Of a DNA stretch of 64,000 nucleotides, positions 30,786-37,044 are shown in pieces. Within the stretch, counting starts at the first letter, position 1. Each line of letters begins with the position of its first letter. The translations under genes and the position numbers were made by a program. The DNA lies in IMG/VR virus record IMGVR_UViG_3300021978_000001, positions 373,491-437,490 of that record; one strand, 5' to 3'. This DNA comes from a virus (taxonomy: Duplodnaviria; Caudoviricetes). The notes beneath the pieces are model-generated. The model had not been told where the DNA came from. It saw only the letters and a list, made by a program, of their open reading frames with translations, and did no database searches.

Positions 30786-31427
30786 ATGAGGGACAACGAC
30801 AGCTACATCTATCGCAAAGGCACCACGCCCAACACGCGTATCGCGATCAGCCAGAAGAACAAGCTCTACTCGGTGGCGCGCGGCCAGACTGCGTTTAGCC
30901 AGGTCGGGCTCGTGTCGAGCTTCGGGTTGAGCGAATCGCGCGCTGTGGACGAGGTGCGTGGGATGGGTTACGGTGATCAGATCGCAGAACTCGTGCCCGG
31001 AGTCACCGGCGCCATGAGCATCTCGGTCAGCCGCACCTTGCTCTATCTCGCAAACATCTACCAGGCCATGGGATACGCTGCGGGCATTGACGGCCTCGTG
31101 CGAAGCCTCAAGCACCACCAGTGGCCCTTTGACCTCAAGCAAGAGCTGGTGTTCTCGCGCATCGCCACCAACTCGCAGAACAACCCCAAGCTCACGGTCC
31201 CCTCTTCGGATGGGGTCAACGAGGCACTCCTCGTGTTCTTCGAGGCTTGCTGGATGGAGTCCTACTCCGCCAACTACGCTTCGGACGCGGCGATGATCTC
31301 GGAAGACGTGGGCATCAAGGCTACCGACGTGATCGACGGTACCTCGACCTACGGCGAGCTTGCTTCCGATGCAGAGTCCACGGGTAACAACCCGTTCTCC
31401 GAGATCGGTTCGCTTCGCTACGGCTAA
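30786..31427 (+). CDS. putative tail tube protein
   Basis: VG.VSSFGLSESRAVDEVRGMGYGDQIAELVPG...SISVSRT...FEACWMESYS.NY; size and pattern of myovirus tube proteins. Confidence 0.65.
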   Translation: MRDNDSYIYRKGTTPNTRIAISQKNKLYSVARGQTAFSQVGLVSSFGLSESRAVDEVRGMGYGDQIAELVPGVTGAMSISVSRTLLYLANIYQAMGYAAGIDGLVRSLKHHQWPFDLKQELVFSRIATNSQNNPKLTVPSSDGVNEALLVFFEACWMESYSANYASDAAMISEDVGIKATDVIDGTSTYGELASDAESTGNNPFSEIGSLRYG

Positions 31428-31443
31428 TCCGTCGCTTTGACGT

Positions 31444-31487
31444 AAAAAAGCCCGCTCTCCTACAAAGAGAGCGGGCTTTTCTTTTTT
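31444..31487. terminator. bidirectional intrinsic terminator
   Basis: AAAAAAGCCCGCTCTC-CTACAAA-GAGAGCGGGCTTTTCTTTTTT between tube gene (+) and solitary CRISPR repeat (-). Confidence 0.9.
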
Positions 31488-31512
31488 CGGGGATGTTTGC
31501 GTGGTAACGAAT

Positions 31513-31541
31513 CGGACCATCCCCGCGCATGCGGGGAAACC
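31513..31541 (-). CRISPR. solitary type I-E CRISPR repeat (cassette 1)
   Basis: Minus strand GGTTTCCCCGCATGCGCGGGGATGGTCCG; CCCCGC/GCGGGG hairpin; no second repeat within one period. Confidence 0.9.
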
Positions 31542-31584
31542 TTTGATACAACCTGTCACACCTTACAACACCGAACTTCGCGTT

Positions 31585-31640
31585 CCTGTACCGAGTCAAA
31601 GGGTACCTCGACTTGACACTACCTGTCAAGTGTTATTCGA
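31585..31640 (-). promoter_or_regulatory. CRISPR cassette promoter copy 1 with 8-bp inverted repeat
   Basis: TTGACA(31629-24)-N18-TACCCT(31605-00); ACTTGACA-N5-TGTCAAGT; 49/56 identical to 32398..32453. Confidence 0.8.
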
Positions 31641-31844
31641 GGCTCTTCTCCTCACTATCATCTCTTTCCCTGAGATCAAGCGCAAGACCGAATCTGCGAC
31701 GGTGCGGCGACGGCCATCATCGAAGCAGACATGCGCGCCGTTGTCATCATCCCCGAGAAGTGTTCCCATGCCGTACTCGGGGTGAAGTACGCGATCTCCG
31801 CGAAACCACCAAGTTCTTTGTACGAGCGTCGTGTCTTTTGTCAT
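31626..31844 (-). CDS. small SH3-like protein (DUF3553-like)
   Basis: AAGGA RBS; GDRVLHPEYGMGTLLG...VCFDDG.RR; stop lies inside the -35 of promoter copy 1. Confidence 0.65.
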   Translation of the reverse strand: MTKDTTLVQRTWWFRGDRVLHPEYGMGTLLGDDDNGAHVCFDDGRRRTVADSVLRLISGKEMIVRRRASNNT

Positions 31845-31855
31845 GGCGCTTCCTT

Positions 31856-32113
31856 TTATGCTGGTCGAAAGTTCCCTACCGCCCACCGTAGCAGGCGTCC
31901 CATTGCCTGAACACTCTCATCTGAGCTTGCGAGCAACCTCGTAGCGGCTTCAGTAGCGCGCTGCTCTGCATCCCCCGAGGTGCCCTCGAAGGCATCCCTC
32001 ACAGCGCGCTTGACGCTTTCTGGGACGTCATTGGCGCGCTCCACAAGGTCGAGACCTTGCGTAGGATTTGCAGCCAACGCGTCGGCGTAAAATACCATCG
32101 TTGTTCGTGCCAT
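31856..32113 (-). CDS. 85-aa helical hypothetical protein directly downstream of array 2
   Basis: ATG 2 nt after terminal repeat; GAGGA SD lies inside the repeat. Confidence 0.7.
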   Translation of the reverse strand: MARTTMVFYADALAANPTQGLDLVERANDVPESVKRAVRDAFEGTSGDAEQRATEAATRLLASSDESVQAMGRLLRWAVGNFRPA

Positions 32114-32115
32114 TT

Positions 32116-32327
32116 TATCCTCGCCCCGCACACGCGGGGAACACTGGTCAATGTCTGAGCGCACGATCTCAGTGATCGGACCATCCCCGCGCACGCGGGG
32201 AACACGGTGAGGGCTGGAGCCGTCACGAGGTGGACATCGGACCATCCCCGCACGCGCGGGGAACACATCTGGTCCCAGGTCTCGGGTGTCCAGTTCACCG
32301 GACCATCCCCGCGCACGCGGGGAACAC
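32116..32327 (-). CRISPR. type I-E CRISPR array 2: 4 repeats, 3 spacers of 32 nt
   Basis: Repeats at 32299-32327, 32238-32266, 32177-32205 and degenerate 32116-32144; 61-bp period. Confidence 0.97.
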
Positions 32328-32453
32328 TCTTCAAATGTCCAGTTCCGTAAGTCCTCGGATTCTTTACAGAATCCTCGAACCCTCGCGAACCCGCTTCCCT
32401 GTACCGACTCGAAAGGTACCTCGACTTGACAGGTCGTGTCAAGTGTTATTCGA
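32328..32453 (-). promoter_or_regulatory. CRISPR leader plus promoter copy 2
   Basis: Leader ends TTTGAAGA before GTGTTCCCC; GGATTCT-N4-AGAATCC inverted repeat; TTGACA-N18-TACCTT; ACTTGACA-N5-TGTCAAGT. Confidence 0.85.
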
Positions 32454-32697
32454 CGACTTTTCCATCACTCGCAGGGATGAACACCCCCGGCCCGCGTTCG
32501 AGCACGGCGAAAAACCCCTGCTCGCCATTATGGACCCCCCTGTGCGCGGGATGGTTACGGAAAGCGACGCGTCGGCCTTTCGAGCCATCCACGGTCACGT
32601 CGATGCGGCATTTGGTGCCAGGTCCGATTTGGGCCATGTACGTGTCGGGGTCGATGATTTTGTGGCCGTAGGTGTTCGTGCCGTCTTCGTTCGTCAT
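32446..32697 (-). CDS. hypothetical protein
   Basis: GAGGA RBS; own class I promoter; stop abuts promoter copy 2. Confidence 0.65.
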   Translation of the reverse strand: MTNEDGTNTYGHKIIDPDTYMAQIGPGTKCRIDVTVDGSKGRRVAFRNHPAHRGVHNGEQGFFAVLERGPGVFIPASDGKVVE

Positions 32698-32735
32698 AGC
32701 ATTCCTCTCTTGATGGTGAGTTCACGTTACGCTTT

Positions 32736-32765
32736 ATCTATACCACAAGAGGGACAGGCCGTAAA
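32736..32765 (-). promoter_or_regulatory. recurrent phage promoter class I
   Basis: TTTACG-N17(...CTTGTGG)-TATAGAT. Confidence 0.75.
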
Positions 32766-32768
32766 GAA

Positions 32769-33257
32769 TCAATCTCCAGGCAAGAGGGAGTGACTCGGCA
32801 CATCCTTGACACCGAGCAAGGAAGGGAGGAAGGCGAGCGCTTCTTCGATCGTGGGGAAGATGAGGTCTGCGGCTTCACGGATGAACGCGTGATCCATGCA
32901 ATGCCCATCCGTCAGCCCCGCGATCACGACCAGCGTGTGCTCTTGACGCGAGGCCCACGCGATCTCGAAGGTGGTCCCGAGCGAGCGCGAGGTGGCGCCG
33001 GTGAGATCCGCGAGCAGGACATCGGCTTGCGCGACCATCCAGGAGTCCCGCCCGAAGATGGCGCGGTCATTGGAGATGGGGTCTTTGTAGCCCTTGGCCT
33101 TGGCTTCCCCTTGCCCGAGCAAGTGCTCCTTACCGAGCATCGGATGCAGGACATGGAAACCCATCGCCTTGAGGACGGTCCCGCGCTCGTGGAAGTGGTT
33201 GTAAGCGTCGTCGAGGTCGAGGCCCGTGATCGGTCCGGCTGCGTAAATGGTGGTCAT
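32769..33257 (-). CDS. nucleoside 2-deoxyribosyltransferase / NMP hydrolase-like protein
   Basis: IYAAGPITG, VLHP, D...V.QADVLLA, S.GT.FEIAWA. Confidence 0.8.
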   Translation of the reverse strand: MTTIYAAGPITGLDLDDAYNHFHERGTVLKAMGFHVLHPMLGKEHLLGQGEAKAKGYKDPISNDRAIFGRDSWMVAQADVLLADLTGATSRSLGTTFEIAWASRQEHTLVVIAGLTDGHCMDHAFIREAADLIFPTIEEALAFLPSLLGVKDVPSHSLLPGD

Positions 33258-33380
33258 GGTGTGCTACCTGTTGGTGACCCTGGGGAGGGTATCTCTCTTG
33301 TACCTCGAATGCTCCGGCCTGTCCAGTAAGCTGTGATATTTCCCTTGTAATGTGGGCTCTTTGACCCATGAGGAGGCGCC

Positions 33381-33755
33381 ATGGCTTCGGTTCGAGAAAT
33401 CCTGCACACGTATCTTGGGATGAACGTCTCGGGGAAACTCCGTGATGCCTTGATCGACATGTTGAGCTACAAGTCCCTCCCTTCCTGGGAGGATTGGCAA
33501 ACATGGTACCTCAATACAGTCGTGGAACACCTGGTTATCTTGTTGCCGGGTGCCACAGGGGACGGTCACGAAATCACGTTCACGCACTCTGAACACGGCT
33601 GGGTTCACCTGGCCTTTTCGTTTCGCACGGGTACCCAGACGCTTTGCGTGTCGATCCGAACCTCGAATCACCATGTGTGTTTGTATGAGGAAGACCCAAA
33701 CCTGTTGAGTCTTCTGGTCGTGCGCATTCACGAGACCCTGAGAGATCTATCATGA
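33381..33755 (+). CDS. hypothetical protein
   Basis: GAGGAGG RBS. Confidence 0.65.
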   Translation: MASVREILHTYLGMNVSGKLRDALIDMLSYKSLPSWEDWQTWYLNTVVEHLVILLPGATGDGHEITFTHSEHGWVHLAFSFRTGTQTLCVSIRTSNHHVCLYEEDPNLLSLLVVRIHETLRDLS

Positions 33756-34363
33756 CACTCGACGAACTCAAGACCACCTTGCTCGCCATGGGTGTTCAAC
33801 ACCCCGAAGTCAAGCTCCAGTTGCGCGCGGTGATGGATACGCTCTCGACAGGTGTCTTCGATCCCTCCCGTATCGCACGCACGAGGCGTGTGGCCGCGAT
33901 CCCCAAGAAGTACGAGCATCTCGACTTCACGCCACCCAAGGACGTGCAGGAGGCCGCAGGGCAGGGTCTCGAACTGCGTCAGGAGCAAGAGGGCGATAAG
34001 GCGGGGTTGACCAATGAAGAGGCGAGCGATCAGGGCATCGGGTCTGGTGTGCAGCGCGCGGTCAACCTCAAGAACGGGACCAAGCTCGAACCTGACACCA
34101 TCCGGCAGATGGATCGGTTCTTCAAGCGCTTCGCGTCTCTTATCGAGAAGGCGCGTCGTCTCACCAAGAAAGAGGAGATCCTCAAGTCCAATATGCATAT
34201 CAGTGATCTGCTCTGGGGAGGCGCGCCCGGTGAGAAGTGGGTCACCAAGATGATCCGCGAGATGGATAAGGCGGATGAGGCAGAGAAGAAAAAGGAGAGC
34301 GCCCTCGCACGTCGCGTCGCTTCTGTTTACCTTATGGCGCGAGGCGTGGCTCAGGGTCATTGA
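33752..34363 (+). CDS. phage head-associated domain protein
   Basis: FTPPKDVQEAA..GLELR...GVQRA.NL.NG....DTIRQM.RFF.R...LLWGG..G..W pattern seen in phage head/protease fusions; ends ARRVASVYL. Confidence 0.65.
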   Translation: MTLDELKTTLLAMGVQHPEVKLQLRAVMDTLSTGVFDPSRIARTRRVAAIPKKYEHLDFTPPKDVQEAAGQGLELRQEQEGDKAGLTNEEASDQGIGSGVQRAVNLKNGTKLEPDTIRQMDRFFKRFASLIEKARRLTKKEEILKSNMHISDLLWGGAPGEKWVTKMIREMDKADEAEKKKESALARRVASVYLMARGVAQGH

Positions 34364-34703
34364 GCGGTCGCACGCGCTCCAGCTTCACGTCATCCTGGTG
34401 CACGAGTACGCGCTGTCCTTCCTGGCGTTGGATCTCCCAGCACGCCCATTGCACATCCTTGTAGATGGATTCACACAGGTTCTTGACCTGGTTATAGGCT
34501 TCCTTGCCCTCCTGATACCAGAGACGGTCCATCGAATCCGAATCGAAGAGAAGATAGGTACGCCTCTCTTCGGGCTGAAACCCGTGCGCCTTGTATGCTG
34601 CGTCCGGCGTATCATGCTCGGTTAGATGAATCGTGAGCTTGGTTTGTGCCAGCCCATCCTCCTGTTGCTTTATCGTACCCATTTTCACACTGAGCCATGT
34701 CAT
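34332..34703 (-). CDS. 123-aa hypothetical protein directly downstream of array 3
   Basis: AGAAGGA SD begins immediately after terminal repeat; ATG 14 nt downstream. Confidence 0.7.
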   Translation of the reverse strand: MTWLSVKMGTIKQQEDGLAQTKLTIHLTEHDTPDAAYKAHGFQPEERRTYLLFDSDSMDRLWYQEGKEAYNQVKNLCESIYKDVQWACWEIQRQEGQRVLVHQDDVKLERVRPLNDPEPRLAP

Positions 34704-34717
34704 GGTTGTTTCCTTCT

Positions 34718-35162
34718 GGGGCTATCCCCGCGCATGCGGGGAATGTCGTTTCGCGCGTAAACAGGGCATCGAGCCATCCCCACAGATGTGGGGAACATAG
34801 GAGGCGAGCGCCAACATGAGACCAGATCCTCGGACCATCCCCGCACATGCGGGGAAAACATGTCCATATTCTCACCAATGAGTGAGGGCGAGCCATCCCC
34901 GCATGCGCGGGGAACACGGGTATACCCGGTATAGGAGGTATTCCTGGAATAGGGCCATCCCCGCATGCGCGGGGAACACAAAGAGTGGTGCGTGCGCGGT
35001 TCCAGACCCACCGGACCATCCCCGCACGCGCGGGGAACACGACAGCAGCGCCCACACGGGCATCACACGCCCCGGACCATCCCCGCGCATGCGGGGAACA
35101 CTCCGTCAATGAGGTCAGCATCCGCCCATATTGCGGACCATCCCCGCGCATGCGGGGAACAC
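34718..35162 (-). CRISPR. type I-E CRISPR array 3: 8 repeats, 7 spacers (32,32,32,33,29,32,23 nt from leader)
   Basis: Repeats at 35134, 35073, 35012, 34951, 34889, 34831, 34770, 34718 (29 nt each); degeneracy increases away from leader. Confidence 0.97.
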
Positions 35163-35278
35163 TCTTCAAATGTTCAGTTCCGTAAGTCCTCGGATTCCTT
35201 AAAGAATCCTCAGACCCTTCCGAACCCGGTTCTCTGTACCGACTCGAAAGGTACCTCAACAGGCCAAACCCTGTCAAG
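35163..35278 (-). promoter_or_regulatory. CRISPR leader plus promoter copy 3
   Basis: 86/95 nt identical to leader 2; TTGACA(35277-72)-N18-TACCTT(35253-48). Confidence 0.85.
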
Positions 35279-35355
35279 TATGTTTTTTCTCCAGTGGTAT
35301 TCTTCTTGTGGCGTGAGCTTTACAGGAATGACTGTCTCTCACGCGAGTTATCATC

Positions 35356-37044
35356 ATGCTACCAAAGATCACCCCCAACCTCGAACAGCGCCTCAAGCAC
35401 GAGGTGTGCGAGGTCGCGCGCCAGGGCTTGATGCAAGTCCCTTCCAAATCCCCCAACCGCATGCTTTCCAAGCTCGCAAAGCACCTTGTCGGCAAGGTCG
35501 ATCTCCCTGCGGGCGCGTTGAGCCAACAGGAAGCGTACCGCTTCGCCATGGAGCTGCTCGGGCAATGCCGCGTCGCCTTGACCGCACATGATGTCAAGAG
35601 CGCGGTCAAGGAAGTCACCGGGGACGAAAACCCCCTCGTGGATACCTCGACCGTCCAGCGTATCGCTGCGGCACTCCAGAAAGGATGCGAAGGCATGCGT
35701 GATGACGCGGAACGTGGTGCTCAGGGCGCCTTGCGTACCGTGACCAAGCTGCTTGTCCGCGATATGGCGCTCGAAGAATGGTCCGCCATGCAAGTCAGCG
35801 ATGCCATGGTCCGTGATATGCTGATCACGCTCCCGATGGCATCCGATCAGATCGCAGGATTCCTTTCGACCTATGTGTCCCGCGCCGCGAGCATTCGGCT
35901 CGTGCAAGCGCGTAAGGTCGCGCGCGCCTTCGCCATGAAGGCTGCTTGCGTGAGCTTGACAGAAAGGACTGCATGCGAGGGCGGGAACTGTGCTTGCTCG
36001 GGCGCCTGCGCTTGCGCATGTGAGGGCTACGCGAATCAGGATGCTTGTGCGTGTGCCTCGGTGACGTCGGGCATCACGATCGCCAATGCAGAAGACTTCC
36101 CAAAGAGCACCCAGGTCGCGATGAAGCGTCTCAAGAAGATCAATGAAGATCTCGAAATGCTCTCGACCAAGATCGAAAAGCTCGAAGATCAGGGCGTGGA
36201 TGCCTCCAAGCTGCATGGGAAGCGCAATGACCTCCAGGGAGAGTACGACCGCACGGTGCGTCTCTTGGAAGGCTTCGGCGTCAAGGTCGCAAAGAACTAT
36301 CCACCCGAAGTCGAACGCTACGTCGAGGAGCACAAGGCGCAAGGCATGCCTGTCGGTAAGGCATGGGCCATCGCCTGGTCGCGCTATTGCAAGTACAAGA
36401 ACCCAGGCAGCGAGCATTGCAAGGGGAAGGATTACTTCCCGGGGCGACGCTCCGCGCAGCTCCCGCGCCGTCAACCTCGTGAAGCGGGAAAGGACGACGC
36501 CAGGATGTTCAACATGGACCCCACGCGCTACACCCGTGAAGAGCGGCGTGAGATCTTGAGGGAGCGCCCCTGGCTGCATCCCCGCAACCCGAGCGCGCTC
36601 GACTATGCCATGGATGCCTTGCGCAAGCCTCTGGCGAACTGGCAAGAGGGCGGTTCCGGGAAAGGCGCGGTATTCGCGGCATACAATGCGTTGCATGAGG
36701 ACCAGAAGAAAGCGCTGGCCATGGCAAACGCCAAGGTGATGCCTTCGAGTACAGTGGCGTTCCGCTCCAGCATGAACGGTAAGACGTTCCCCTCGTCGAT
36801 GAAGGGGCAATCGTTGCATGTCGAGATCGAACCTGGCATGGCGCGGCTCGGACCCAACCATGTCCGCGCTTACCAGGTCACGCCACGCGAGGTGATGATT
36901 CACCCGGACATCCCCGGGTCTCCGCTCGGCAAGGGTGTGTGGAAGTGGGAGCGCGAGATGATCCTGATGCCGGACGCGAACCCCAAGCGTCTTTCCGATG
37001 CACAGACCGCAAAACTTCTCGATTCGATCGCCAGGAGAGGCTGA
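35356..37044 (+). CDS. multi-domain putative internal virion protein with C-terminal ART-like domain
   Basis: R/K-x-A motifs, Cys-rich linker, AWAIAWS module, C-terminal FR...GQSL...WEREMIL. Confidence 0.6.
   Translation: MLPKITPNLEQRLKHEVCEVARQGLMQVPSKSPNRMLSKLAKHLVGKVDLPAGALSQQEAYRFAMELLGQCRVALTAHDVKSAVKEVTGDENPLVDTSTVQRIAAALQKGCEGMRDDAERGAQGALRTVTKLLVRDMALEEWSAMQVSDAMVRDMLITLPMASDQIAGFLSTYVSRAASIRLVQARKVARAFAMKAACVSLTERTACEGGNCACSGACACACEGYANQDACACASVTSGITIANAEDFPKSTQVAMKRLKKINEDLEMLSTKIEKLEDQGVDASKLHGKRNDLQGEYDRTVRLLEGFGVKVAKNYPPEVERYVEEHKAQGMPVGKAWAIAWSRYCKYKNPGSEHCKGKDYFPGRRSAQLPRRQPREAGKDDARMFNMDPTRYTREERREILRERPWLHPRNPSALDYAMDALRKPLANWQEGGSGKGAVFAAYNALHEDQKKALAMANAKVMPSSTVAFRSSMNGKTFPSSMKGQSLHVEIEPGMARLGPNHVRAYQVTPREVMIHPDIPGSPLGKGVWKWEREMILMPDANPKRLSDAQTAKLLDSIARRG

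Follow-up and report, generated by a model that had tools for sequence, protein, structure and literature searches.

Canonical type I-E CRISPR arrays, such as those of E. coli K-12 and T. thermophilus, are built of 29-nt repeats with a G-C stem of 6 to 7 bp, a 4-nt loop and an 8-nt handle, which alternate with 32-nt spacers behind a leader that carries the promoter, and they are served by a Cas6e with a catalytic His. In both organisms the Cas6e cut lies just 3' of the final G of the stem, and the handle in T. thermophilus is AUGGACCG. The array described here, which we call array 3, and the phage that carries it share all of these canonical features, with ATGGTCCG as the handle, and differ from them in four respects: a ribosome-binding site and a protein-coding gene stand in place of the trailer, the arrays are scattered through the phage operons and also lie between cas genes, Cas1-Cas2 is missing, and the repeat loops vary widely within one genome.

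Another point of comparison is provided by engineered Cas6f/Csy4 hairpins, which have reportedly been put in front of coding sequences so that the mRNAs are cut and insulated (Qi et al. 2012). The phage junction is similar to these constructs in that a Cas6-type hairpin lies directly upstream of a Shine-Dalgarno (SD) sequence and a start codon, and a cut at the 3' base of the stem would leave a short 5' UTR of defined length, irrespective of the RNA upstream of it. The key difference is that the constructs are synthetic, while the phage arrangement, with its predicted cleavage, would be a natural one that occurs at least seven times in one genome. Engineered Csy4 hairpins of this kind are also the subject of Borchardt et al. 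2015 (PMC4604432).

Viral solitary repeats, or RNA anti-CRISPRs (Camara-Wilpert et al. 2023, PMC10651486), are likewise virus-borne and transcribed together with a small neighbouring ORF, and in the published link between such repeats and acr genes, the repeats are decoys of host systems and have the ORF on their upstream side. At the phage locus, in contrast, the ORF lies downstream, no Acr/Aca signature is seen, and the repeats form a full eight-repeat array with real spacers in a virus that has its own Cas6e-Cascade-Cas3 system; with eight repeats, spacers and cognate Cas proteins encoded by the phage itself, the locus was not assigned to the solitary repeat units or Racrs. Also comparable are the CRISPR-Cas systems without adaptation modules that are carried by huge phages; the accessible part of a review (PMC11656645) describes phages larger than 200 kb that have arrays and interference genes and no Cas1-Cas2, as is the case here, and contains no description of arrays that are interleaved with genes or fused to translation starts. 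Our literature search found neither a natural fusion of a CRISPR array to a translation start nor phage arrays used as operon punctuation.

The window, that is, the whole stretch of 64,000 nucleotides that was analyzed, covers the final 64 kb of a virus record that is complete at 437,490 bp and has direct terminal repeats. Searches with Pfam identified Cas3, Cas7, Cas6e, Cas5 and a Cse1-Cse2 fusion among the phage proteins. Cas6e matched PF08798 with E = 2.7e-27, an alignment with E. coli CasE placed its His48 at the catalytic His20 and showed that the glycine-rich loop was present, and no close relative of this protein was found in a set of 5.8 billion proteins. Cse1 (Cas8e) and Cse2 (Cas11) form one 725-aa protein encoded at genome positions 15828-13651 (minus strand), with matches to PF09481 and PF09485. 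For Cas1 and Cas2, no match to PF01867 or PF09707 was found in the complete 437-kb record, while control genomes were matched; a missing adaptation module is usual for phage-borne systems and leaves the identity of the arrays unaffected, and array 3 qualifies as type I-E in all testable features other than the adaptation genes.

The genome carries about 78 repeats, all on the minus strand, which are arranged in 12 arrays of at least two repeats and in solitary units. Among the 38 distinct repeats, the stem cells were paired in 100%, with compensatory changes in 13 cells, and one stem pair showed a compensatory change from G-C to A-U in 11 of the 38. The 4-nt loops vary widely among the repeats of this one genome, which is unusual for CRISPR arrays, and the variety of loops together with the compensatory changes is consistent with a long evolution lacking spacer acquisition. 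It was also observed that single repeats adjoin or sit inside tRNA-like sequences, with T-arm motifs directly 3' of them, at 120-128 kb and 148.9 kb of the genome (minus strand).

Array 3 (34718..35162, minus strand) consists of eight type I-E-like repeats and seven spacers of 32, 32, 32, 33, 29, 32 and 23 nt in order, and the repeat consensus is GTGTT-CCCCGC-NNNN-GCGGGG-ATGGTCCG (29 nt, with a 4-nt loop and an 8-nt handle). No other part of the phage genome and no phage in the INPHARED collection matched the spacers, Rfam showed no family match in 31000-36000, and BLAST of the region against plasmids and phages returned only generic likeness to type I-E repeats. The terminal repeat (34746-34718, minus strand) reads ACAT-TCCCCGC-ATGC-GCGGGGA-TAGCCCC, in which the 5' flank (ACAT) is degenerate while the hairpin (34742-34725) is intact, with 7 bp made up of 6 G-C pairs and an outer T-A pair. 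The handle of this repeat, ATAGCCCC (34725-34718), is equal to the consensus at 5/8 positions and is 1 nt away from ATGGCCCC, the handle of internal repeats in two other arrays. When the 437-kb genome was searched with a covariance model derived from 58 of its other repeats, the terminal unit was detected with E = 0.0047, and its hairpin is thus not due to chance.

The translation-initiation region (34704..34717, minus strand) starts without a gap after the terminal repeat and is composed of AGAAGGA (34717-34711, with the SD core AAGGA at 34715-34711) and the 7-nt spacer AACAACC, and it is followed by the ATG (34703-34701) of an ORF of 123 codons plus stop (34332..34703, minus strand); the distance from the end of the hairpin to the ATG is 22 nt. 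This junction had been proposed in an earlier, sequence-only reading of the same DNA as an intact terminal hairpin followed by the SD and ATG of a 123-aa ORF, and the minus-strand reading of 34746-34701 agrees with that description to the base. The same reading regarded the junction as a repetition of the coupling at array 2 with an unrelated protein, and BLASTP between the 123-aa product and the 85-aa product of the array 2 ORF indeed showed no similarity.

The last spacer of array 3 (34747..34769, minus strand) is only 23 nt long. A guide of this length is unlikely to be normal, and the terminal hairpin is therefore unlikely to serve one. One conceivable role for repeat 7, this pseudo-spacer and the terminal repeat is to act together as a regulatory cr-like RNA, which would pair partially with a phage or host promoter and repress it; the regulatory mini-arrays inside cas loci likewise have a short spacer flanked by one intact repeat and one degenerate one (Shmakov et al. 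2023, PMC10120712). Elsewhere in the genome, however, the pseudo-spacer was matched at best over 15/16 nt with E = 0.26, which is at chance level, so that such a role appears scarcely credible, and the element was not placed among the regulatory mini-arrays, of which partial complementarity is a defining property.

The candidate promoter of array 3 (35248..35277, minus strand) is composed of TTGACA (35277-35272), 18 nt and TACCTT (35253-35248), and it is followed by a conserved type-1 leader (35163..35247, minus strand) that ends ...ACATTTGAAGA right before repeat 1. The leader is 88% identical to that of array 2 over 146 nt, the same leader is present ahead of arrays G, H and I (genome 26-31 kb) and ahead of arrays in the related phages G001 and G002, and in five arrays TTGACA stands exactly 115 nt ahead of the first repeat. 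A search of the 437-kb genome with the word TTGAC[AG]-N17-19-TACC[CT]T returned 10 matches, 10/10 on the minus strand, 6/10 of which head the leaders of arrays or solitary repeats and 4/10 of which lie ahead of other minus-strand genes; the copies inside the window are at 35277-35248, 32442-32413 and 31629-31600 (minus strand). Judged by its sequence and placement, this word looks like a real promoter class of the phage, and its -10 element is weak by sigma-70 rules, with the leader promoter being missed by a generic sigma-70 scan. As a side observation on the neighbourhood of array 2, an ORF similar to nucleoside 2-deoxyribosyltransferase (PF05014, E = 1e-8) is located at 32769-33257 (minus strand), just upstream of the array 2 cassette.

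The array 3 cassette is flanked by plus-strand genes at 33752-34363 and 35356-37044. Since the 123-aa ORF is the only minus-strand gene between two plus-strand genes, it has no upstream region except the array, and since the 3' end of the convergent 203-aa gene (33752..34363, plus strand) overlaps the last 32 nt of the ORF, the array and the ORF make up a stand-alone minus-strand cassette among plus-strand genes. On the plus strand, the terminal hairpin together with ATGTCGTTTC (34725-34751) was called as a terminator-like site, which could mark the end of the transcript of the convergent gene 33752-34363.

An independent promoter inside the last spacer would speak against the coupling of array and ORF, and the sigma-70 scan together with the leader-word search found none within array 3. 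More broadly, no sigma-70-like promoter and no minus-strand terminator were predicted in 33600-36000, where the leader word is the sole promoter-like element upstream of the ORF, and from the absence of a promoter and a terminator between array 3 and the ORF we infer that the two would be co-transcribed. It could be argued instead that a promoter of an unrecognized type within the distal portion of the array serves the ORF alone and makes its expression independent of the array transcript, given that phage-specific promoters need not look like the sigma-70 consensus and that degeneration and odd spacer lengths (33, 29 and 23 nt) are seen in the distal half. Against this, neither a sigma-70-like site nor a copy of TTGAC-N17-19-TACCYT was found between 35162 and 34704, and the hairpin and the ATG are only 22 nt apart, which makes such a promoter improbable.

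With a probability of about 0.6, we read array 3 and the ORF as one transcript from the leader promoter in which Cas6e would cut the hairpins, with the last cut freeing the mRNA of the ORF. Specifically, the leader promoter, as one of the ten-member minus-strand promoter family, would drive array 3 and the ORF together, and the phage Cas6e would bind every repeat hairpin and cut at its 3' base. By analogy with the known enzymes, the cut in the terminal repeat is predicted to fall between G34726 and A34725, and the predicted product starts with the 8-nt handle, followed by the purine-rich SD from base 9. The proposal that cleavage leaves an 8-nt handle with the SD at position 9 thus fits the sequence, given a cut of the E. 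coli/T. thermophilus type. The cut at the last hairpin would part the crRNA precursor from a short-leadered and unstructured mRNA with a 5'-OH end, consisting of the 8-nt handle remnant, AGAAGGA, 7 nt and the AUG, while Cas6e would remain on the upstream cleavage product.

In RNA folding, the SD of the 123-aa ORF was predicted to be unpaired whether or not the RNA was cut, and the 5' region after the cut was predicted to be unstructured (-7 kcal/mol, z = +0.9). No basis was thus found for a strict translational switch at the junction. A long-range helix was also predicted on the minus strand (34664-34800), in which the 23-nt pseudo-spacer pairs with codons 4-11 of the ORF and which encloses the terminal hairpin, the SD and the AUG; the fold, which includes two repeat hairpins, has an MFE of -47.9 kcal/mol (z = -2.6). 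The helix, which cleavage would remove, is suggestive only.

The arrangement is not confined to array 3. A hairpin followed by an SD and an ATG at 10-26 nt ends 7/12 arrays in the genome, and the ORFs so placed are 84-241 aa long and include cas6e. The distance from the hairpin to the ATG is 19 nt between array C and cas6e, 20 nt between array D and a 96-aa ORF, 26 nt between array F and a 140-aa ORF, 21 nt between array I and a 94-aa ORF, 15 nt between array J and an 84-aa ORF and 10 nt between array K (array 2) and the 85-aa ORF, with the 22 nt between array L (array 3) and the 123-aa ORF as the seventh case. For arrays B, G and H, a same-strand ORF apparently comes next at roughly 35-45 nt, as read by eye, and for arrays A and E another promoter comes next. 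No terminator-like site was found after an array on the transcribed strand in the stretches that were scanned. The 96-aa ORF at the end of array D (genome 23004-22714, minus strand) lies between this array and cas3 and showed weak HTH-type matches (TIGR02612, E = 0.008; NF058600, E = 0.016), and its product may be a regulator of the phage cas operon.

To what extent this recurrence is meaningful depends on the null model. Such a junction occurs at random genome positions 1.9% of the time, and against random positions 7/12 gives P = 6e-10. The fairer null, however, is genome compaction rather than random position: the gaps between same-strand genes in this phage have a median of 45 nt and 42% of them are 30 nt or shorter (rough figures from heuristic gene calls), and against this null (gaps of 30 nt or less) 7/12 is not significant, with P = 0.21, whereas P is 3e-4 when only gaps of 8-30 nt are counted. 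The earlier argument that the architecture is not accidental thus holds against random sequence and is unproven against compaction. As the junction spacing fits ordinary gene packing, a special function of the junction is not required by it; spacing alone indicates that the arrays are packed like cistrons and does not demonstrate a special role of the junction.

These numbers leave room for an explanation by compaction only, under which the ORF is read through from the array promoter and the terminal hairpin just finishes the last crRNA, with no role in expression. Besides the short gaps and the unremarkable P of 0.21, the looser spacing in related phages (34-62 nt) is in favor of this explanation, as is the fact that terminal repeats degenerate at their 3' ends are commonplace in CRISPR arrays. 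Other features of the junctions, namely stem conservation, aberrant last spacers and a common AAGGAA, go beyond compaction. In the 7 terminal repeats, 0/42 core stem pairs were broken, while 11/28 bases of the 5' flank and 37/56 bases of the handle differed from the consensus, and such strict conservation of the hairpin while the flanks decay is the sequence signature expected of selection on the hairpin. The last spacer is aberrant in 6/7 junction arrays (20, 21, 23, 35, 36 and 52 nt), whereas internal spacers genome-wide are 32 nt in 38/46 cases and range from 29 to 34 nt; the last spacer of three junction arrays, array 3 among them, measures 20-23 nt, so that a perfect hairpin is kept with no normal guide for it. 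AAGGAA is common to 4/7 junctions in comparison to 9/296 other gene starts (Fisher P = 7e-5). Taking these points together with the P of 3e-4 for gaps of 8-30 nt, we consider compaction as the whole explanation to be rather unlikely, although it carries real weight.

The leader-end word found two related partial phages in IMG/VR, G001 and G002 (IMGVR_UViG_3300012271_000005 and _000928), while a search of IMG/VR with the exact repeat pattern returned two single matches only, both unrelated. In G001 and G002 the arrays are also followed by same-strand ORFs, at 34-62 nt, which suggests that the embedding of arrays in operons is a trait of the group and the tight fusion a feature of this genome. 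No homologue of the 123-aa ORF was found in G001 or G002, and searches with the 562-aa gene, the 203-aa gene and Cas6e as anchors found no related loci. Two variants of the repeat (GTGTT...ATGTCCCG and CCCTT...ATGTTCCC) occur in these relatives together with both leader types, the arrays are on both strands, and one array of 12 repeats has a spacer-less repeat pair.

We also asked what kind of gene the junction of array 3 leads to. The codon-usage score of the 123-aa ORF is 0.32 bits per codon, which is the best of the six frames, with lower scores for the overlapping alternative ORFs, and is equal to the mean of true-frame 123-codon windows of the long genes of the phage (mean 0.32, sd 0.14). 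In a search of 5.8 billion proteins, the sole credible homologue, present only in Logan assemblies, is 87% identical and also 123 aa long, with the first 15 residues identical. Codon usage and this homologue together mark the ORF as a real gene. An exhaustive search of 1.84 billion representatives with HMMER gave one extra match (E = 4e-4) to a repetitive 2044-aa protein, which was judged spurious, and no loci related to the ORF were found in viral contigs or metagenome contigs. The ORF had no match in Pfam, PHROGs or NCBIfam, and the only match among PDB sequences was the TPR repeat protein 2kck, which was insignificant at E = 0.09.

Small acidic ORFs in such positions had been put forward by the sequence-only reading as anti-CRISPR candidates, and the product of the 123-aa ORF is small and only mildly acidic, with a pI of 5.3 and a net charge of about -5. 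An anti-CRISPR made together with the array would be compatible with the processing model, and, apart from the small and mildly acidic orphan protein in a phage, there is published precedent in that viral solitary CRISPR repeats are statistically overrepresented around predicted acr genes and a bicistronic transcript is described for one acr-racr pair (PMC10651486). The evidence against it is broader. Searches of Pfam, PHROGs, NCBIfam and PDB sequences, and of the 1.84 billion representatives with HMMER, showed no likeness to a known family or solved structure. The AlphaFold2 model of the protein (34332..34703) was too poor to offer a usable fold (pLDDT 52.8), Foldseek with this model against PDB and BFVD found nothing at E <= 0.001, and the structure rows from the ESM Atlas were all below TM 0.45 and uninformative. 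As for guilt by association, no HTH domain or Aca-like gene was found in the ORFs neighbouring the 123-aa ORF in the window cassette, and the gene downstream is convergent and on the plus strand. In addition, the repeats are no decoy of a host system, and an anti-I-E protein would endanger the complete type I-E interference system of the phage itself, to which they belong. The seven array-linked ORFs are mutually unrelated and one of them is cas6e, so that the position marks no functional class. The anti-CRISPR proposal was therefore not borne out, and we regard it as quite improbable for this protein.

Returning to the reading in which Cas6e releases the mRNA of the ORF, the arrays would act as cistron-like elements of operons, and the repeat hairpins would be processing points between guide RNAs and protein messages. 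Possible benefits for the message may include stabilization by the 5'-OH end, release from the structured precursor and co-timing with guide production; for Cas6f, 5'-OH RNA ends were found more stable than 5'-PPP ends (PMC10651486). As an isolated cassette with one promoter and one gene, array 3 and its ORF offer a clean test object. A wider version of the proposal, in which Cas6e and the repeat hairpins form a general RNA punctuation that matures at least seven mRNA 5' ends, those of cas6e and the 123-aa gene included, is possible but more doubtful, and if true, it would tie the expression of accessory genes to Cas6e activity and give a natural counterpart of the synthetic Csy4-insulated operons.

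If the junction works as proposed, CRISPR repeats would be operon punctuation besides being scaffolds of guide RNAs, and a Cas6 nuclease would set the 5' ends of ordinary mRNAs, which so far has been known for engineered constructs only. It would also account for an acquisition-less phage retaining hairpins without a usable guide, and would provide a testable case of Cas6-dependent gene expression. In general, the junctions would then mark a set of orphan genes whose expression depends on the CRISPR weapon of the phage.
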